Translations under genes and position numbers: made by a program
Part shown: positions 33,423 to 47,412 of the stretch, one piece after another
Layout: each line of letters begins with the position of its first letter
Position numbering within the stretch: the first letter of the stretch is position 1
Assembly (NCBI GenBank): GCA_027593235.1
Contig: JAQCIU010000007.1
Span: 1-64,000, forward strand
Reading direction: 5' to 3'
Source: Chloroflexota bacterium
GTDB lineage: Bacteria > Chloroflexota > Dehalococcoidia > UBA2979
Length of the DNA: 64,000 bases
The notes under the pieces: generated by a model
The model's database searches: none
Seen by the model: the letters and a program-made list of their open reading frames with translations, nothing else
What the model was told of the DNA's origin: nothing

Positions 33423-34814
33423 CTACTCCCCGCGCACCAGCCCGGGCGACACTTCCGCGATCACGCCGGCGGGCACCTCGGCAGGCACGCCGGGCCGCAT
33501 CCAGGCGCGGATCCGCCCGGCACCGAAGTACAGCAGCAGCAAGGCAGCGAGCAGGATGCCCGCGGCCGCCTGCGTTTCCACCGCACCGAAGTGATCGATC
33601 GACCAGCCCATCGGTAGCAGCGCCACCGGGCTCAGCGAGAACGTCAGCATGTAGATGCTCATCACGCGCCCGTAATAGGCGCGGTCCGTCCGCTCCATAA
33701 TCATCACGCTGTTCAGCGTCATGTACCCCTGGCTCGCCAGCCCCACCACCGCCAGCACGACCAGCGACAGCCCGAGGAATGGCGACAACGCGAACGCCAC
33801 GAGGAGCGCGCCGAACGCGATCCCGGCGAACATCTGCAGACGCGCGCGGGTCTCCGCTCCCTGGATCGCACCGACCGAGAGCGATCCGATCAGCGACCCA
33901 ACTCCGACCGCCGCATACATGAAGCCCAGCGACGCCTCGCCGACGTGGAGCACGTCCTTCTGGAACACCGGCAGCAGTTGCTGGAACGGCATCCCGATCA
34001 TCACCGGAATGAACGCCAGCACGATTAGCGACCGCAGCGCCGGGTTCGCGCCCACGTAGCGCACGCCATCGACCATGTCGGCCAGCGCCGACCGCGACCG
34101 CTTCGCCGCCGGCGCCAGCGAGGGCAGTCGCAGCAGCATTAGCGCCGCCATCCCGTAGAAGACGGCGATCAGATCGAAGGCCAACGCCGGATGCCACGCC
34201 AGCAGCAGGCCAGCCAGGCTTGGCGCCAGCACGCGGTTCAGATTCATCCCCGACGAGTTCAGCGCCACCGCGTTCGGTAGCTGATCCTCCGGGACAATCT
34301 CCGGAATGATCGCCTGCCGTGTCGGCATGTTGAACGCGAAGATCAGCCCTTGCAGCACGCTCAACACCACGAGGTGCCAGACCTGCACGATGTCCAGGTG
34401 CACCAGTACCGCGTTCACCGCCGACAGCGCGGCGAGCATGAACTGCACAGCGATCAGTAGCGCCTTCTTGTTCGCCCGGTCCGCGATCGCGCCGCCGAAC
34501 AGCGACAGCGCGCTCTGCGGCAGCCCTCGAGCGAGCGACACGAGGCCCAGCGCGACCGCCGAGCCGGAGATGGTGTAGGCCAGCCACGCCCGCGACACCA
34601 GGTTCATCTGCATCGCCGCCTGGGCGAACAGCATCCCGAACCACAACATGCGGAACTGCGCGTTTTGGAGCGCCGTGAACGCGTCACCAATACGCGGCTT
34701 CGAGCGCGGCGGCGGTACGGGTGCTGACTGCGGAGTTGCCTGATCGGGACGGCGGGACGATGCCATCGGAACCCTCGCGAAGTGGCTCGGTCTGCCCGTG
34801 GGCAGGTCGCTCAT
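33423..34814 (-). CDS. MFS transporter under c-di-AMP riboswitch control
   Basis: FRMLWFG, GGAIADR, MPTRQAIIPEIV, GRVMSIY; ATG 34814 preceded by GGGAG (alternative start 34766). Confidence 0.88.
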   Translation of the reverse strand: MSDLPTGRPSHFARVPMASSRRPDQATPQSAPVPPPRSKPRIGDAFTALQNAQFRMLWFGMLFAQAAMQMNLVSRAWLAYTISGSAVALGLVSLARGLPQSALSLFGGAIADRANKKALLIAVQFMLAALSAVNAVLVHLDIVQVWHLVVLSVLQGLIFAFNMPTRQAIIPEIVPEDQLPNAVALNSSGMNLNRVLAPSLAGLLLAWHPALAFDLIAVFYGMAALMLLRLPSLAPAAKRSRSALADMVDGVRYVGANPALRSLIVLAFIPVMIGMPFQQLLPVFQKDVLHVGEASLGFMYAAVGVGSLIGSLSVGAIQGAETRARLQMFAGIAFGALLVAFALSPFLGLSLVVLAVVGLASQGYMTLNSVMIMERTDRAYYGRVMSIYMLTFSLSPVALLPMGWSIDHFGAVETQAAAGILLAALLLLYFGAGRIRAWMRPGVPAEVPAGVIAEVSPGLVRGE

Positions 34815-34820
34815 CGACTC

Positions 34821-34936
34821 CCGAGCCTGCGAGGTTAGCTGTCGGGTTCGGGCGGGAAGCCCGTCCGCATCACGCGGATTCACCCCAGAACTGGTTCCCC
34901 CGTTCCGCCCTGTTCACGGGCGGATTCGGCTATCGG
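34821..34936 (-). promoter_or_regulatory. c-di-AMP riboswitch (ydaO/yuaA class)
   Basis: minus strand GCCGAATC...GGAACGGGGGAACCA..TGGGGTGAATCC...GGGC-TTCCC-GCCCGAACCCGACAGCTAACCTCGCAGGC; all conserved ydaO blocks in order. Confidence 0.93.
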
Positions 34937-35039
34937 CGAACGTACTCTCACGTGCACGTCATGTCTATGAGCGAGCCCGCGAATCGTGCGGTCGAGCACC
35001 GAGTAGCCCGGCCGTGAGGCGAGGCACTACCTTGCTGCA

Positions 35040-40086: not shown

Positions 40087-41544
40087 CTAGCTGGCGGTCA
40101 GGACGAGCACCGCATCGCCAGCCGCGTTCGACGCGACCGACGACACCGCCCAGAGCCGAGGCGCCGATCCTACGATCGCCGTCTCCGCGGTCAGCGCGAA
40201 GCCGATCGCGCCGCGCGACCCGTCGAGGATGATCCGCGTGTCGGTCAGCAGCGTCACCGTTCCGCGGAACACCGTGAGATCACCAAACGTCGCCGCAACC
40301 GACGGCGCATCCGCAGGCACTGATGTCGCATCCGCGGGCGCCGGCGTCGCATCCACCGGTGCCTCGGCGCGCGGCGCGGCGTCACGCATCGCATCCGCCA
40401 CCAGTGCCTCGATCCGACCGCGAAGTCGCTCCCCGAGTTGATCGATGAACACTTCGGATCCCAGGAACGATCGCAACGCCTCGAGGTCGTCGAGTTGCCC
40501 GCTGAAGCGCTCGGGTGTGGCCGTCGCGTTCGGCAGCGCTGGATCGAATCGGTCGCCCGGCACCACCTGGATCGGCGGTCCCTGAGGGAACTTCGCTTCG
40601 ATCGTCAACCGCCGGTCGCCGCGCTGAACGAGCAGCTCGATCACGTGCACGATCGAGGATCGCTGTCCCCGTTCCAGCGTGGTCCGCGGCAGCGCATCGC
40701 GGAGCGTCTCGACGTCGCTCGCCGCTACCCCTTCAACCTCGAGGATCACGTCGCCTTCCTCGAGCCCGGCCACCGCCGCCACTGAGTTGGGATCGACGCT
40801 GACGACGCGCAACCCGTCGTTCGCCTGCACCACCGCGATCCCGAGCACGGGTCCCAGCCGCTGCCGCCCAAAGCGATCCGGGGCGGGCTGAGACTGACTG
40901 CCTCCCCCGCCGCTGGGTGCGAACCCAAAGTCCCGCAGGTCGAAGTTGCCGAAGTCGTACCCCCGGAGATCGAACCCCTGCCCCGCGAGTTGCTCGAGGA
41001 ACGAGGTGATCGCTGGTTCGATGCCAAGGCCGCGCGCGACCGTCAGCGTGTGTTCGTCGCCGTCGCGCCGGATCTCCAGTTCGTAGTCGTCGCCCACCTC
41101 GATCGCGGAGACCGCGGCGCGCAACTGCTCGCTGGTCTCGACACGATCGCCGTTCACCGCTCGTATCTCGTCGCCGACCTCGATCCCGGCGTCATCCGCG
41201 GGACTGTCCGCGTCAACGTGACCGACGACCAGCGTCCCGTCCGCCTCGCTGACGCTAACGCCCAGCACCGCGCCGCCCATCAGGAACTGTTCGAGCAGCC
41301 CGCGCAGTCCCTGATCCGCGAATGGACCGTCCTCGAACGCATCACGGGCAAACGGGCCGTCCGCGAACAGGCCGCCCCGCCGGTTCGCGGTGTCGGCGGT
41401 CGGCACGCGCACGTCGTCGTCACGGCTGCGATCGACGACCACCACGATCGCGCCAACGATCGCGACAATCGCCGCGACGCCAACGATCAGCGGTGGCAGA
41501 TTGCGACGGACGTAGCTTCCGGTGGAGCTGGGTGGCGTACTCAT
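40087..41544 (-). CDS. membrane-anchored protein with two PDZ domains
   Basis: N-terminal TM; LGVSV..VDADSPADDAGIEVGDEI and LGIAV..VDPNSVAAVAGLEEGDVI. Confidence 0.8.
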   Translation of the reverse strand: MSTPPSSTGSYVRRNLPPLIVGVAAIVAIVGAIVVVVDRSRDDDVRVPTADTANRRGGLFADGPFARDAFEDGPFADQGLRGLLEQFLMGGAVLGVSVSEADGTLVVGHVDADSPADDAGIEVGDEIRAVNGDRVETSEQLRAAVSAIEVGDDYELEIRRDGDEHTLTVARGLGIEPAITSFLEQLAGQGFDLRGYDFGNFDLRDFGFAPSGGGGSQSQPAPDRFGRQRLGPVLGIAVVQANDGLRVVSVDPNSVAAVAGLEEGDVILEVEGVAASDVETLRDALPRTTLERGQRSSIVHVIELLVQRGDRRLTIEAKFPQGPPIQVVPGDRFDPALPNATATPERFSGQLDDLEALRSFLGSEVFIDQLGERLRGRIEALVADAMRDAAPRAEAPVDATPAPADATSVPADAPSVAATFGDLTVFRGTVTLLTDTRIILDGSRGAIGFALTAETAIVGSAPRLWAVSSVASNAAGDAVLVLTAS

Positions 41545-41561
41545 CGCAGTTCCCTTCTCGG

Positions 41562-43010
41562 CTACGGCCGAGGTGACGCTTCGGGGTTGCCAGGTCCGCC
41601 GATCGGCAGCCACACGCTGAACGTGGTGCCCGCGTCGCGCGACGACTGCACGTGGACCGAGCCACCGTGTGCCTGCACCAGCTCCTGGACGATCGAGAGT
41701 CCGAGGCCGCTGTGCCGCGACTCCGCGCGCGCCGGATCGACCTGGTAGAAGCGGTCGAACACCGCGGCGAGGCCCTCCTTCGGGATCGGTTCACCGCCGT
41801 TGTTCACCTCGATCGCCGCTTCGTCCTCCAGCGCGTAGGTGCGGATCAGCACCTCGCTGCCGCTCGGCGCGAAGCGGATCGCGTTGTCCACGAGGTTGGC
41901 CAGCACCTGCTCCAGCCGCCGCCCGTCCGCGCGTACCGTCGGGCCATCGAGCACCAGCCGCAGGCTCACCGCCGCCTCGTCCGCCTGGAACCGGAACCGC
42001 GCCGCCGCGTCCGCGACGATTGCGTCCAGCCCCACCCGATCGAGGTTGAGCTGCAACGTGCCCGACTCGAGCTGGGAGAGGTACAGCAGGTCATCGACCA
42101 GCACGCGAATTCGTTCGGTCTCGCCGACGATCACGCCGGACATCTCCGCATAGTCCTCGGGCTTCGTCGCCAGGCCGTCGACCATCGCCTGCCCGAATCC
42201 CTGGATCGAGGTCAGCGGCGTCTTCAGCTCGTGCGAGACGTTGGCGATCAGGTCGCGCATCGCACTGTTGCTTCGCGCCACCTGCGTCGACATCTGGTTG
42301 AACGCCGCCGCGAGGCGGCCGATCTCGTCGTCGCCCTCGCCGCGGATGCGCTGATTGAGGTCACCGCGAGCCATCGCTTGCGACGCCCGCGTCATGTCCC
42401 GCACCGGCGTCGTGATCCGCGCAGCGAACAGGAACGCGAACAGCACCGCCACCACGCCGGCCCCGACACCCGCGATCGTCAACCGCGGTAGCAACGCCGC
42501 CCACGCCGAGTTCACGTCCCCGGCCGGCACAGCCAGCACGAGCTGACTGCCCGGCACCCGCGGGAACGAGATGTCGGACGACGTGGTCGCAACGCGGAAG
42601 AAGTACAGATCGTCATTGTTCATCGTCATGCGGACCGATTGGAACGGAGCGATCTGGCCCACCTCGGCGGGCGCTCCGTCCGGAAGCTCCAACACCTCGC
42701 CGAGCGCCGGGTGTTCCGGATCAGTATCGATCAGCACCTCGTTGTTCGAGTCCAGCATCAGAATGCGAATGTCGTAGTAGGTTGCGAATTCGACGAGCTG
42801 CGTGCTGATCTCCGAGCGTGGCCATTTCTGCAGTTCCATACGCTCGACACTGGAGTTGATCGGACCGACCAGGATGCCGATCCGCTGCTCTGCGGCCTCC
42901 GCCTGTTGCTCACGAAGCAGCAGCACGAACGCGGACGCGGAGAGGAACAGCGTCAGGAGAATGACGATGCCGAACCCGGCGAGCAGCCGGGCCCGGAAGC
43001 TACCCAGCAT
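41562..43010 (-). CDS. sensor histidine kinase (HAMP-HisKA-HATPase)
   Basis: DEIGRLAAAFNQM, SHELKTPL, NLVDNAI, FDRFY, SGLGLSI. Confidence 0.95.
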   Translation of the reverse strand: MLGSFRARLLAGFGIVILLTLFLSASAFVLLLREQQAEAAEQRIGILVGPINSSVERMELQKWPRSEISTQLVEFATYYDIRILMLDSNNEVLIDTDPEHPALGEVLELPDGAPAEVGQIAPFQSVRMTMNNDDLYFFRVATTSSDISFPRVPGSQLVLAVPAGDVNSAWAALLPRLTIAGVGAGVVAVLFAFLFAARITTPVRDMTRASQAMARGDLNQRIRGEGDDEIGRLAAAFNQMSTQVARSNSAMRDLIANVSHELKTPLTSIQGFGQAMVDGLATKPEDYAEMSGVIVGETERIRVLVDDLLYLSQLESGTLQLNLDRVGLDAIVADAAARFRFQADEAAVSLRLVLDGPTVRADGRRLEQVLANLVDNAIRFAPSGSEVLIRTYALEDEAAIEVNNGGEPIPKEGLAAVFDRFYQVDPARAESRHSGLGLSIVQELVQAHGGSVHVQSSRDAGTTFSVWLPIGGPGNPEASPRP

Positions 43011-43698
43011 CTCCGGCGGGCACGAACTTGTAGCCCACGCCCCAGACGGTCTCGATCGCGGGCTTGCCGCCCTTGAGCTTGTCCCGCAACCACGCTACGT
43101 GGACGTCGATCGTCCGCGCGTCGCCGTAGAAGTCCTCGCCCCAGACCATCGCCAGCAGCCGCTCGCGGTCCAGCGCCACGTTCGGATGGCGCATGAACGC
43201 CTCGAGAAGATCGAACTCGCGCTGCCGGAGCTTCACCCGTTCGCCCGCCACGTTCACGTCGCGCCCGGCCGGGTCCAACGTCACATCGTTGATCGTCACC
43301 GGACTCGGTCCGTTGTCGCCCTCGATCTTGTCCCACTCGCGCCGGCGCAGCACCGCTTTCACGCGCGCGACCAGTTCACGAGGGTTGAACGGCTTCGTCA
43401 CATAATCGTCCGCCCCCATCTCGAGGCCGACGATCTTGTCGACGTCGTCGGAACGGGCGGTCAGCATGATCACCGGCACATCGGACTGCTTGCGAATCTC
43501 CGTGCACACGTCGAATCCGCCGATCTCCGGCATCATCAGATCCAGCAGCACGAGATCGGGATTCTCGGTCGCGAACCGATCGAGCGCTTCGCGCCCGTTG
43601 CGCGCTACGACGACCTCGTAGCCCTCCTGGCGGAGGTACAGCCGCAGTAGTTTGGTGATGTTCTGTTCGTCATCGGCGACGAGGATTTTGGCGGTCAT
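43000..43698 (-). CDS. OmpR-family response regulator
   Basis: ADDE, LLDLMMP, GADDYVTKPF, ETVWGVGYKF. Confidence 0.96.
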   Translation of the reverse strand: MTAKILVADDEQNITKLLRLYLRQEGYEVVVARNGREALDRFATENPDLVLLDLMMPEIGGFDVCTEIRKQSDVPVIMLTARSDDVDKIVGLEMGADDYVTKPFNPRELVARVKAVLRRREWDKIEGDNGPSPVTINDVTLDPAGRDVNVAGERVKLRQREFDLLEAFMRHPNVALDRERLLAMVWGEDFYGDARTIDVHVAWLRDKLKGGKPAIETVWGVGYKFVPAGDAG

Positions 43699-43950
43699 GG
43701 GTACGCCTGGACGGTGGGGGGTGGAGGTCGGGGCCGAGCCAAGTCACCACAAGGGTGACCCCGTCGTCGTTCGCAACCGCTCCCACCACTTGCTCTTTTC
43801 GACGAACGTCGCCGGGTTGGCTCGGCCCCTACAGTCCATAGGATGCCGGAAGCCCATTGGCGCGCCGCTATCCAAGTGTAAACGAACTATGATCTTTACC
43901 CGGCTCCAATTCACCGGAAAAACGCCCTATTTCCGGGGCGATCCCGCCCC

Positions 43951-44184
43951 TTACTGCGGCGGACGCCGCAGCCGCCGAAGCTGATCGGTTCCCACGCTCG
44001 GCCGCACCACCGCTTCGCGGTTCTCGCCGGCCACCTCGGCCAGCAACTCCTCGCGTAGGACCGAGATCGATCGAGGCGCGTCGATGCCGATCTTCACCCG
44101 CTCGCCGTCAATCGACAGCACGCGAACGATCACATCGTTGTTGATCACAATTCCTTGCTCAACCTTGCGCGTCAGAATCAGCAC
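43951..44184 (-). CDS. csrA: carbon storage regulator CsrA
   Basis: MLILTRK.EQGIVI...VKIGIDAPRSISVLREEL. Confidence 0.95.
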   Translation of the reverse strand: MLILTRKVEQGIVINNDVIVRVLSIDGERVKIGIDAPRSISVLREELLAEVAGENREAVVRPSVGTDQLRRLRRPPQ

Positions 44185-44250
44185 GCTGGGCCTCCTGCCG
44201 CTCGTGCGCTCTGGGGACGGCGCCGAAGCACCGCTCGAGGGCGGTTAATC

Positions 44251-44741
44251 TCAGGCGCTGGCCGCCAGGCCCAGCATGGTGAAAACGGGTCGTCGAAGCG
44301 CGTACTCGGATTCCTGCAGCACCACCTGGCGTGCCAGGTGCGTCCGCCGGCAGAACACGATCGGCGCCAGCAGGTTCGCCGTAATGTCCTCCGGCACCTC
44401 GCGCAGCGTCAGGATGCACCGGACGAACGCGTCCTCCGGGCTCTCCATCCCCAGCTCCTCCGCATCCCGATCGGGAAGCTCGAAGCCAAAGTCAGGCTCG
44501 AAGAGGAACGGCTCCAACAGCGGCAGCGCGATGTCCGGATCCTCGACCGACTGCAGCCACTCCACGGGCGAATCGTTGCCGTCCGGGATCAGCGCGAAGC
44601 GGCGAAGCTGCTCGAACCCACCCAGTGGTGGCTCGAACGCAAACGATGCGCGGGCGGTACCGCGCGGATCTGCTCCGCGACTTCGTGCTCATGCTGGGAT
44701 CGCTTGAGCTCCCGGATGAGGGGATGCTGACGCCGTTGCAC
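44251..44741 (-). pseudogene. fliW: flagellar assembly factor FliW, frameshifted near 44641-44643
   Basis: GFEQLRRFAL, WLQSVEDPDIALPLLEPF, ITANLLAPIVF, QVVL; adding one base to the short T-run joins the N-terminal frame (…VPPAHR|FAFEPPLGGF); start uncertain. Confidence 0.8.
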
Positions 44742-44937
44742 CCCCCGTTGGAGGCTGCAAAACCCGCGTTCCGGTCGCCGACCATCTAGCGACGATCGGC
44801 TTGCGGCGCGCTGTCAGGCGACAGCAGGGTCGATCATGTACGGCGGCGGGGCCGCACATGTCCACGGAACTGCGTCGACGACGTTCCTTCGCCCGGGAAC
44901 CGATCCCGAGCCCCAAAGAACCGCCGAGGGTTGAACC

Positions 44938-45150
44938 CTAGAGGCGCAGCTTGCCGTGCGAGGGCTGACGGCGGCGCTGCTTGCCGGCCATCAAACGCTC
45001 TTCTTCTTCAATGTCCTTGGGGTCACAGCGCTCGCTGTCGTGGACAAAGCCACAAGCGATGCAGGTGCCGAACTTCCCGTACCAGTCGTCCTCGATAAGC
45101 ATGAGGCCGCGGCAACGCGGGCAGTTCTTTGGCGGGGCGCTTGAAATCAT
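44938..45150 (-). CDS. small Cys4 zinc-ribbon protein of unknown function
   Basis: CPRC-x17-CIAC; GAGGAG SD; acidic then basic tail. Confidence 0.85.
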   Translation of the reverse strand: MISSAPPKNCPRCRGLMLIEDDWYGKFGTCIACGFVHDSERCDPKDIEEEERLMAGKQRRRQPSHGKLRL

Positions 45151-45206
45151 GGCCCGCACTCCTCTGTCTGTCGTGCGTCCGGCGTCCCGCCGGCTGGGCC
45201 TGAATC

Positions 45207-45336
45207 GTCTGCTTCCGGGGTTAGCTGACGGGTTCGGGTCGGTCCAGGTTGACCCGTCCTCCCATTGGAGGATTCACCCCTAGGATTGGTTCCCCCGGTC
45301 TCGACTGTCCTGGCGGGCAGCCGAGATTCAGCAGAG
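45207..45336 (-). promoter_or_regulatory. c-di-AMP riboswitch (ydaO/yuaA class)
   Basis: minus strand TCTGCTGAATC...GACCGGGGGAACCA..GGGGTGAATCC...GGGTC..GACCCGAACCCGTCAGCTAACCCCGGAAGCAGA; closing TCTGCT/AGCAGA; pseudoknot CCTGGA/TTCAGG. Confidence 0.93.
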
Positions 45337-45349
45337 CGCTTACGCGCCA

Positions 45350-45388
45350 TAGCACAATTACAAGCGGAATCCGTTCGTGATTGTGCTA
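45350..45388. promoter_or_regulatory. 39-bp imperfect palindrome (candidate operator)
   Basis: TAGCACAATTACAAGCGGA-A-TCCGTTCGTGATTGTGCTA; 16 of 19 positions Watson-Crick. Confidence 0.55.
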
Positions 45389-45526
45389 ACAAGAGCATAC
45401 CCCGGCGCCTCGTCATGTCAAGGTTCGGTAAATGGCGTTTACGCACAGTCTCATCACGGCTGATCGACCGCTGCTTCGATAGGATTAGCCCCTGAATCCC
45501 GCTTGCAGCCGGCGAAAGGTCGCCCC

Positions 45527-46627
45527 GTGTCCGCCCTTCCCGATCCTCGCACGGTCATCCACGACACCGTCACTCGCATCGCTCCGGTCAGCGACCTAGC
45601 CGCGGAAACGGCGCGCGCACGCCACGGTCAGCTCACCAAACCGCCCGGATCGCTGGGCCGACTGGAGGATCTGGCGGTGCGGATCGCGGCGATCCGCGAC
45701 GAACCGCGCCCGCGGCTGGATCGGCGATTGATCGTCGTGGCGGCGGCGGATCATGGCGTGACCGCACGCGGGGTCTCCGCCTACCCGGCGGAGGTAACGG
45801 CGCAGATGGTGGCGAATTTCCTGGCTGGCGGCGCGGCGATCAACGTGCTGGCCGATCACGCGGGAGCGCGCGTGCGTGTGGTGGACGCAGGCGTCGCAAC
45901 CGACACCGGCGACCACCCGGCGCTGGAGACACTGCGACTGGGTCGCGGCACCGCCGATATCACCGCGGGGCCAGCGATGCCGCAAGCGGTGGCGGAACGC
46001 GCGCTGGCCGCCGGGATCGCCATCGTCGAGGACGAACTGGACGCCCGAGGCCTGAACCTCGTGGGGTGTGGGGAGATGGGGATCGGCAACACGACCGCGG
46101 CGGCGGCGATCGTCGCGGCGGTGAGCGGACGACCGCCGATCGCGGTGACCGGGCGCGGGACGGGCATCGACGACGCGACCCACGCGCGCAAGGTGGAGGC
46201 GATCGAAACGGCGTTACGGGTAAATCACCCGGATCCGCTGGACGGTGTGGACCTCCTCGCGAAGATCGGCGGCTTCGAGATCGGGCTGCTGGCGGGCGTT
46301 TATCTCGGCGCGGCCGCGCGGCGGGTGCCGGCGATCGTCGACGGCCTGATCTCGGGGGCGGCCGCGCTGATCGCGGTTGCGATCGAGCCACGGGTGCGCG
46401 ACTACCTGATCGCGTCGCACCGCTCGGTCGAGCCGGGGCACACGGCGACGCTAGAAATACTGGGGCTCGACCCGCTGCTGGAGCTGGACCTGCGGCTCGG
46501 CGAGGGCACTGGCGCGGCGTTGGGGATGACGATCTGTGTCGCCGCCTGCCGCGTGCTGGACGAGATGGCCACGTTCGCGGAGGCCGGCGTCTCCGACTCC
46601 GACACGGTGATCGAACCGGAAGGATGA
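45527..46627 (+). CDS. cobT: nicotinate-nucleotide--dimethylbenzimidazole phosphoribosyltransferase
   Basis: LTKPPGSLGRLE, ADHGV, GEMGIGNTT, GGFEI, RLGEGTGA, MATF. Confidence 0.96.
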   Translation: MSALPDPRTVIHDTVTRIAPVSDLAAETARARHGQLTKPPGSLGRLEDLAVRIAAIRDEPRPRLDRRLIVVAAADHGVTARGVSAYPAEVTAQMVANFLAGGAAINVLADHAGARVRVVDAGVATDTGDHPALETLRLGRGTADITAGPAMPQAVAERALAAGIAIVEDELDARGLNLVGCGEMGIGNTTAAAAIVAAVSGRPPIAVTGRGTGIDDATHARKVEAIETALRVNHPDPLDGVDLLAKIGGFEIGLLAGVYLGAAARRVPAIVDGLISGAAALIAVAIEPRVRDYLIASHRSVEPGHTATLEILGLDPLLELDLRLGEGTGAALGMTICVAACRVLDEMATFAEAGVSDSDTVIEPEG

Positions 46628-47412
46628 ACGCGATCGGGCGCGTGCTGAGCGGCGCGCCGATCGCCCTCGAATTCCTCACCCCGCTGCGGCTCCGCGCGGT
46701 GCAGCGTCATGACGACCGCGTGTTCGCGGAGGCGGTCGGCTGGTACCCGGCGGTCGGCCTGCTGATCGGCTGCGGGCTGCTCGCGCTGGACCGAGGGCTC
46801 TCCGAACTGCTCCCGCCGGCGCCGACCGCCGCGCTGCTGATTGCGGCGCTGGCGCTCGTTTCGGGCGGGCTCCACCTCGACGGCGTCGCCGACACGGCCG
46901 ACGGTCTGGCGGTACAGGGCGACCGCGAGCGCCGGCTCGCGGTCATGCGCGACAGCACGACAGGGCCGGCCGGCGTGATGGCGCTGGTGTTGGTGCTGTT
47001 GGTCGGCTGGTCCGCGCTCGCCGCGCTGGAGGATCCGTTCCGGTCCGGTGCGCTGGTGCTTGCGCCGGCCCTCGGACGGTGGGCGGTGATCCCGGTTGCC
47101 GCGACCTTCACCCCGGCACGCGCGGGCGGCCTGGGCCAGACGATCCACCGCGGTATCTGGCCGTTCGCCGGGCCATTCGGCACGCTGACAGTCAGCGCGG
47201 CTGCCGTCGCGCTGTTCGGCCTCGGCGGGCTCGTGCTGGTGCTGATCGCGGGCGTTGCCGCGTTGATCGTCGCGGCTGCGGCGGCGCGGCTGCTACGCGG
47301 CGTGAGCGGCGACATCTTTGGCGCGTGCATCGAGGTGGCGCAGGTGGTGAGCTGGCTCGCGATCCTCGCGGCGGCGCAGCGCGACTGGATCGACGCGGCG
47401 CTGCTGGGCTAG
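46624..47412 (+). CDS. cobS: adenosylcobinamide-GDP ribazoletransferase
   Basis: FLT, GGLHLDGVADTADG, MRDS..G, GVSGDIFGA; ATGA overlap. Confidence 0.94.
   Translation: MNAIGRVLSGAPIALEFLTPLRLRAVQRHDDRVFAEAVGWYPAVGLLIGCGLLALDRGLSELLPPAPTAALLIAALALVSGGLHLDGVADTADGLAVQGDRERRLAVMRDSTTGPAGVMALVLVLLVGWSALAALEDPFRSGALVLAPALGRWAVIPVAATFTPARAGGLGQTIHRGIWPFAGPFGTLTVSAAAVALFGLGGLVLVLIAGVAALIVAAAAARLLRGVSGDIFGACIEVAQVVSWLAILAAAQRDWIDAALLG

Follow-up and report, generated by a model that had tools for sequence, protein, structure and literature searches.

A c-di-AMP riboswitch and its conserved zinc-ribbon miniprotein gene, most probably brought next to a fliW-csrA remnant by a recent flagellar-cluster deletion in a Dehalococcoidia bacterium

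The first 64,000 nucleotides of contig JAQCIU010000007.1 (assembly GCA_027593235.1, Chloroflexota bacterium, Dehalococcoidia, UBA2979), referred to here as the window, carry on their minus strand a cyclic di-adenosine monophosphate (c-di-AMP) riboswitch, a gene for a zinc-ribbon miniprotein of 70 amino acids (aa), fliW and csrA. A first-pass annotation had read this arrangement as a new signalling module in which c-di-AMP control would extend to the CsrA network. Comparison with related genomes indicates, with a probability of roughly 0.9, that the order is a scar and not an evolved circuit, two unrelated units having been pushed together by a recent deletion. The first unit would comprise a sigma-70-like promoter, the riboswitch and the miniprotein gene. 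The second would be what closes a flagellar operon, (flgM-flgK-flgL-)fliW-csrA, with a two-component system behind it. Relatives have some 22 kb of genes for flagellar regulation, motor and export in between; this strain would have lost them through a deletion with one end within a convergent HD-domain gene and the other near codon 22 of fliW, so that the start codon of fliW went with them. The features on which this reading rests are the following.

45195..45343, minus strand: c-di-AMP (ydaO/yuaA) riboswitch aptamer, RF00379 (82.3 bits, E 1.3e-17)
44938..45150, minus strand: gene of the 70-aa zinc-ribbon miniprotein, ATG at 45150, with CPRC and CIAC motifs, an acidic helix and the C-terminal tail RRRQPSHGKLRL
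44790..44937, no strand: former convergent intergenic region from the zinc-ribbon gene to the HD gene, with GC-rich hairpins and no T-run in the predicted fold
44643..44789, plus strand: 3' stub of the HD-domain gene, its last ~48 codons, reading ..TMRGRYRADLLRDF..AFRSPTI* in the window and ..ETMRGRYRPDLLRDF..AFRSPAA* in the same-genus genome G001
44641..44643, no strand: deletion junction, at which 21.9 kb are missing relative to G001 (C8:1632092-1654024)
44251..44643, minus strand: 5'-truncated fliW, from about codon 23, without a start codon (PF02623, 120.5 bits)
43951..44184, minus strand: csrA, intact, 77 aa, with AGGAGG 7 nt before its GTG start (PF02599, 72.8 bits, cut-off 27)

The window aligns to G001 in three blocks. 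Positions 46770..44939, with cobT, the riboswitch and the miniprotein gene, correspond to G001 1630010-1631849, positions 44779..44641 to 1631953-1632091, and positions 44639..41039, with fliW from about codon 23, csrA, a response regulator and a kinase, to 1654025-1657590. The stretch of G001 that is missing from the window opens with the convergent HD-domain protein (Pfam HD and HD_5 domains), a family-less protein with CVHHW and CKRCG motifs, NarL-type and CheY-like regulators and a methyltransferase, continues with MotA, MotB, FliM/N, FliP, FliQ, FliR, FlhB, FlhA and an SRP54-type GTPase, which we read as FlhF, and closes with a PilZ protein, a sigma factor, a rod protein, FlgM, FlgK and a Flagellin_N protein, after which FliW and CsrA follow. 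At the junction itself the minus strand from 44643 reads FAFEPPLGGF..., that is, FliW minus its first ~22 residues, and the N-terminus of G001 FliW, MKLTTHLLGTEETVDVSPQQIF (residues 1-22), is without counterpart in the window. The two sides would share at most 1-2 nt of microhomology. Since the gene after the miniprotein gene is convergent in G001, the miniprotein gene would have been a single-gene unit before the deletion, and its transcript would then have ended within the present 44937..44790. In agreement with the first pass, a simple scan finds no canonical T-run terminator in the gap that separates fliW from the zinc-ribbon gene. The possibility that the stretch from the zinc-ribbon gene to the HD stub belongs to a repeat family was considered too, and rejected because this stretch occurs in a single copy in the genome.

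The fliW remnant matches its family well above the cut-off of 25, over profile positions 2-121 of 122. Its reading frame holds no ATG, GTG or TTG between the in-frame TGA at 44691-44689 and the GTG at 44565; the latter, the sole in-frame start, shows no ribosome-binding site by reading, and starting there would drop conserved residues. Because its frame offers no start codon, the gene could not be translated from a proper start; judged from the sequence, it is most likely a pseudogene, and truncated FliW is most likely not made. A frameshift or programmed shift was considered and rejected, since the alignment with G001 identifies the sequence upstream as the unrelated antisense of the HD gene. 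The co-directional fliW and csrA of the first-pass annotation therefore hold as far as both domains, their common strand and an intact csrA are concerned, and fail for fliW as a gene, which is without a start and some 22 codons. If FliW is not made, CsrA would be left without its antagonist in a strain lacking the flagellar export apparatus.

Contigs from other metagenome studies record the locus in two forms. A 1284-nt contig of run X3 represents the deleted form: it covers 43900-45075 with 0 differences and bridges the junction. Two further studies contributed runs X4 and X5, whose contigs, 99-100% alike, break off exactly at 44643 on either side and go on with a different sequence; translated by hand, these overhangs give ..ETVNVSPEQI before FAFEPP, as in the FliW N-terminus, and ..AYRALYTLRE before TMRGRY, as in the HD protein. 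With the deleted form in X3 and undeleted ends in X4 and X5, both alleles exist in near-identical strains in nature.

The source assembly, a metagenome-assembled bin of 78 contigs that is 89.7% complete, has no match to FHIPEP, MotA_ExbB or Flg_bb_rod, and a tblastn search for remnants (cut-off E 1e-4, rows reported only under 1e-6) with relatives' ABM-like, CVHHW, FlbD-like, MotA and MotB proteins gave nothing in this genome. No other flagellar family is present among the 52 further open reading frames of the window (Pfam, E <= 1e-5), which bears out the earlier statement that the window holds no flagellin or other flagellar gene; a flagellin gene (C32:81289-82461) is found on the same contig 37 kb away, outside the window. 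The assembly thus keeps flagellin, a FliD-like gene (named by reading of its sequence) and a FliG domain at a contig end, and their retention fits a recent loss. The FliG C-terminal domain (G000:C44:369-686, minus strand) lies at the very end of contig C44, where a second flagellar cluster may run off the assembly.

The distribution of these genes was followed in two sets of loci. The 40 nearest genomes were searched with the 70-aa protein, and 25 contain a strong homologue (57-97% identity, near full length). For a wider set, a profile scan with one genome per species gave at least 414 stretches encoding a relative of the miniprotein; 80 loci were kept, the titles of which are all those of Dehalococcoidia or Chloroflexota metagenome-assembled genomes. 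The sets overlap (L006 is L035) and their counts are not additive. fliW was found near the zinc-ribbon gene at none of the 25 loci (tblastn, +-1.5 kb) and at none of the 80 (up to 4 kb). csrA occurs within the flanks at 2 of 25 and 6 of 80 loci, always just ahead of the orthologous response regulator. By family search FliW is present in 14 of the 40 relatives, nine of which also possess the miniprotein; of these nine, five (G001, G016, G019, G020 and G024) carry fliW on the strand of the miniprotein gene, 22-24 kb downstream of it, one has fliW far away and three have it on another contig. In flagellated relatives fliW-csrA close a flagellar cluster, their usual place. The proposed synteny of riboswitch, zinc-ribbon gene and fliW-csrA is accordingly not conserved, and the claim that c-di-AMP control reaches fliW-csrA as a module falls with it.

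The same survey brings out a longer-range association with flagellar genes. FlhA is encoded in 15 of the 40 relatives, ten of them with the miniprotein. In seven of these ten, among them G039 from another family, flhA follows the miniprotein gene on the same strand at a distance of 8-13 kb; of the other three, one has flhA far away and two have it on other contigs. The genes that come after the miniprotein gene, in its own direction, at many of the 80 loci are a ~100-aa gene and a CVHHW gene, both described below, two regulators, an FlbD-like gene (by reading) and motAB. The conserved position upstream of flhA and before the regulators and motAB hints that the miniprotein might be a regulator heading the flagellar regulon, with c-di-AMP, as a measure of osmotic or potassium state, gating motility, and that it was kept for a second role where flagella were lost. 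Counting against this are the 15 of 25 miniprotein-bearing relatives that lack FlhA and the convergent gene in G001, and we hold it to be improbable. As the riboswitch and gene are kept as a pair in the relatives without FlhA, the flagellar neighbourhood is treated here as retained synteny.

In contrast to fliW, the riboswitch stays with the miniprotein gene. A covariance-model search confirmed the second full ydaO aptamer that had been proposed: the match to RF00379 (gathering score 38) covers the full model, positions 1-134 of 134. Two copies of this riboswitch occur in the window, likewise two in the whole 3.39-Mb assembly, and 45343..45195 is the second. It lies in the 5' leader, on the strand of the zinc-ribbon gene, with 44 nt between the end of the match and ATG 45150; the distance of about 57 nt given previously fits the end of stem P1 and not that of the Rfam match. 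The corresponding open reading frame, 45150..44938, also agrees with the earlier description of a 70-aa CPRC/CIAC protein with a strong ribosome-binding site, GAGGAG standing 8 nt before the ATG. At 25 of 25 loci in the relatives, Rfam places an RF00379 match exceeding the cut-off immediately ahead of the miniprotein gene and in its orientation; one of four weak look-alikes is preceded by such a match as well. A covariance model of our own, built from 26 aptamers, detected exactly one riboswitch per locus at 80 of 80 loci, on the strand of the gene and ending ~40-75 nt before its start codon. The first-pass annotation had allowed that the pairing might not be conserved; it is kept in every locus examined, and on these sequences the predicted control of a small zinc protein by a c-di-AMP riboswitch stands.

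Two further elements complete this unit.

45394..45421, minus strand: sigma-70-like promoter candidate, TTGACA, 16 nt, TATGCT (10/12 hexamer matches, by consensus only)
45147..45203, minus strand: expression platform, with a hairpin 45193..45179 inside an outer stem 45203..45196 / 45155..45147

The promoter candidate stands ~50 nt upstream of the riboswitch and is the sole promoter-like site in 43600-45600 (mean of shuffled sequences 0.2), the region in which sigma-70 consensus sites were sought. Promoter, riboswitch and 70-aa zinc-ribbon gene are thus predicted to form a conserved single-gene unit. One DAC cyclase domain, for c-di-AMP synthesis, was found in the genome. Binding of c-di-AMP by 45343..45195 and the resulting switch in expression are predictions from sequence. 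The RNA run X15 contributed two 151-nt contigs only, over 45015-45165 and 45193-45343.

Characterised riboswitches of the ydaO class are OFF switches. By analogy with these, c-di-AMP binding would lower expression of the miniprotein, which would then be made when c-di-AMP is low. The likely route is the conserved hairpin between aptamer and ribosome-binding site, acting as an attenuator, and the stem that pairs with the start codon may add to the control, so that regulation may take place at the level of transcription, translation or both. In the minimum-energy fold of the window (-36 kcal/mol, z -2.13) the outer stem pairs the U and G of the AUG start codon; the Shine-Dalgarno sequence lies at ~45164..45159. 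The hairpin 45193..45179 was named by eye and its pairs were then counted: 88.3% of cells are paired over 48 sequences, as against at most 49% when the partner is slid, and 14 cells carry changes on both sides, a number reached by 0 of 500 shuffles. In low-GC marine members (L084-L091) a T-run follows the platform hairpin, as in an intrinsic terminator, whereas high-GC members, the window included, are without a T-run there.

The product of the controlled gene is a zinc ribbon as judged by its four cysteines and its modelled ribbon fold. The AlphaFold2 model (predicted local distance difference test, pLDDT, 77) shows a three-stranded ribbon (residues 16-38), a helix (44-55) and a disordered tail, and the alignment of homologues shows the CPRC...C(I/L)xCG ribbon and the acidic stretch. 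The tail RRRQPSHGKLRL, the arginine-rich last twelve residues, is the same in all 26 strong homologues compared and varies hardly at all among 75 database representatives. Against Pfam PF08271 (Zn_Ribbon_TF) the protein scores 19.4 bits, under the cut-off of 29, and its score does not make it a member of that family; no NCBIfam model reached its cut-off, and a search of the ESM Atlas returned only generic ribbons or hypothetical Chloroflexota clusters. All database entries that name it are 'hypothetical protein' in metagenome-assembled genomes of Chloroflexi type. The TFIIB-type ribbon together with the arginine-rich tail suggests that the miniprotein binds nucleic acid or a conserved machine, for example RNA polymerase or the ribosome. 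Two other ideas about the protein were discarded. The tail is not a shared tag, as the six-frame translation of the genome contains the motif nowhere outside the miniprotein gene, and 25 longer profile matches that might have been fused forms have no Pfam domain N-terminally and were taken as over-called open reading frames.

With these data the competing explanations can be weighed. If riboswitch, zinc-ribbon protein, fliW and csrA were an operon selected to tie c-di-AMP to the CsrA network, the co-directional genes would be expected, as would a promoter-like site before the riboswitch and a terminator-like site only after csrA. However, fliW adjoins the zinc-ribbon gene at none of the 25 and none of the 80 loci, its start codon and ~22 of its codons are missing here, the zinc-ribbon gene is followed by a convergent gene in G001, near-identical strains retain the undeleted ends, and the deletion explains the adjacency base for base; we consider a selected module of this kind barely credible. 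The join at 44643 could also be that of a chimeric contig drawn from two places of the metagenome genome or genomes, since the bin consists of 78 contigs and the X4 and X5 contigs break at exactly 44643. Such an artefact is nevertheless highly improbable: the X3 contig comes from a different study and spans 43900-45075 with 0 differences, in G001 the two flanks correspond by synteny to the left and right edges of one cluster, which a random chimera would not reproduce, and the rest of the bin likewise lacks the genes for flagellar export and motor. A third explanation accepts the deletion and supposes that csrA, stripped of its flagellar-operon promoters, is now read through from the riboswitch promoter, so that CsrA tracks c-di-AMP by accident. 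Everything upstream of codon 22 of fliW has been removed, the sole consensus promoter in 43600-45600 stands before the riboswitch and the sole T-run terminator after csrA, all of which would suit such rewiring. Yet the 148-nt former convergent region with its GC-rich hairpins presumably ended the transcript before the deletion, the promoter scan covered sigma-70 consensus sites only, csrA may have a promoter inside fliW or be silent, and no RNA cover of fliW or csrA appeared in any run, the lack of cover in X15 carrying no weight. Accidental read-through is, on balance, rather unlikely. As it stands, csrA may be silent, transcribed from an internal promoter or reached by read-through from the riboswitch promoter.

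The recent deletion between two unrelated units is thus the preferred explanation. Several points weigh against it or against parts of it. DNA identity to G001 is only 77-80%, and the content of the deleted stretch is deduced from that genome; the undeleted allele has been seen only as 30-letter contig overhangs in two runs; and the missing flagellar genes could in principle be on unbinned contigs, though not at this locus. On the side of the riboswitch, RNAalifold did not predict the platform hairpin and gave 4 trivial pairs only, with 47 of 71 distinct platform sequences plus the window as input, from which 14 long variants with an extra hairpin and 10 near-duplicates were omitted. As the adjacency results from the 21.9-kb deletion, the link from c-di-AMP to CsrA is in the preferred reading a strain-level deletion scar.

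The region to the right of csrA contains the following features.

43923..43940, minus strand: terminator-like hairpin with a T-run, directly 3' of csrA (simple scan)
41562..43698, minus strand: OmpR-type response regulator (43698..43000) and HAMP/HisKA histidine kinase (43010..41562), by Pfam

The response regulator and kinase are conserved right-hand neighbours of csrA, orthologous in G001 and at many loci. At six loci (L066, L072, L074, L088, L095 and L042) csrA with the same regulator and kinase lies within ~3 kb after the miniprotein gene, without fliW, and at seven further loci (L040, L041, L060, L061, L080, L107 and L112) the regulator directly follows the miniprotein gene. Such neighbourhoods suggest that the flagellar cluster was lost from this locus repeatedly and independently. 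In the relative G016 the FlhA match falls into two adjacent pieces (C53:123902-125858, profile 1-224 and 225-656), which may be a frameshift in the cluster of another lineage.

Some further genes and riboswitches were observed in the neighbourhood. In the G001 cluster the HD/HD_5 gene (C8:1631943-1632962) stands at the flank and a PilZ gene (1646066-1646626) inside (L130, L131), which hints at control of motility by cyclic di-guanosine monophosphate (c-di-GMP) beside a c-di-AMP-controlled gene. Directly after the miniprotein gene, and co-directional with it, ~34 of the 80 loci encode a ~100-aa protein (MxYVRxSxM...GRxGVWES...; L047:4033-4338) that has no Pfam or NCBIfam match and is not found in this genome by tblastn; our impression is of an ABM/Dabb-like protein. 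A ~75-aa protein with CVHHW...CKRCG...RFDDYRELT is encoded at 29 loci (L035:5544-5768, L057:4675-4896 and 27 others), always immediately ahead of a NarL-type response regulator with which the flagellar cluster opens; it belongs to no Pfam or NCBIfam family and may be a second zinc miniprotein. Cobalamin riboswitches (RF00174) occur within 1.5 kb of the miniprotein gene at 5 of 20 loci of relatives (L010, L018, L019, L023 and L025), where they adjoin cobT/cobS/cobU genes; such genes flank the miniprotein gene in the window too. The other RF00379 copy of the window (34941..34811, minus strand, 82.7 bits) lies ahead of a major facilitator superfamily (MFS) transporter gene (MFS_3, MFS_1; 33423-34941), and this gene and the miniprotein gene are the only members of the RF00379 regulon detected in the assembly.

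What looks like a tidy operon in a single metagenome-assembled genome can be the scar of a deletion, and any wiring of c-di-AMP to CsrA here would be a by-product of gene loss. The window also offers a clean case of a flagellar cluster being lost at strain level, caught in progress. The riboswitch-controlled miniprotein is the real lead, being a conserved, uncharacterised predicted target of a c-di-AMP riboswitch. Literature searches found no report joining a c-di-AMP riboswitch to a zinc ribbon, nothing on the miniprotein gene in work on ydaO in Chloroflexi and nothing relevant on a c-di-AMP riboswitch with a hypothetical protein in Chloroflexota; no link of the riboswitch to motility or flagella was found among titles that were listed in part only, and nothing relevant was found on the zinc-finger protein ZifS. 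According to the part consulted of a comparative-genomics account (PMC3766115), the ydaO regulon consists of transporters and wall-remodelling enzymes. Most known targets encode transporters or enzymes of the cell wall; a small protein that probably binds nucleic acid would stand apart from these, and the miniprotein may be a new kind of c-di-AMP output.

In Bacillus subtilis the corresponding flagellar locus is flgM-flgK-flgL-fliW-csrA-hag, and FliW, CsrA and flagellin form a partner switch. G001 shows a matching order of FlgM, FlgK, a Flagellin_N protein (FlgL-like), FliW and CsrA. Of the partners in the switch, the FliW domain and CsrA persist in the window and a flagellin elsewhere in the genome. 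The operon is cut, however: fliW is without its start and ~22 codons, the genes for export and motor have disappeared, and the switch has probably ceased to operate in this strain.

The miniprotein resembles several known ribbons at the level of the fold. Its best structural match is ZifS of Thermus thermophilus (TTHA0897, PDB 8yoz), with a Foldseek E of 0.11 against PDB, a VIA Z of 3.5 and a root-mean-square deviation of 5.2 over 58 residues; a weak profile match connects it to the TFIIB ribbon (E 0.0063, PDB sequence profile). The four-cysteine, three-stranded ribbon is common to the miniprotein, to TFIIB-, RPB9- and TFS-type ribbons and to ZifS, the matches being under the family cut-offs or in the range of a common fold. 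In contrast, the acidic helix and the RRRQPSHGKLRL tail of the miniprotein are absent from TFIIB, RPB9, TFS and ZifS.

Well-known leaders with c-di-AMP riboswitches are those of ydaO (kimA) and ktrAB in B. subtilis and of actinobacterial rpfA. Like the known ydaO/yuaA (RF00379) regulons, the unit described here has a full-length aptamer scoring well above the cut-off in the 5' leader of a co-directional gene and a hairpin ahead of the ribosome-binding site, in a genome with a DAC cyclase. It differs in that its high-GC members have no T-run after the hairpin and in its target, which is a 70-aa zinc-ribbon miniprotein and not a transporter or cell-wall enzyme.

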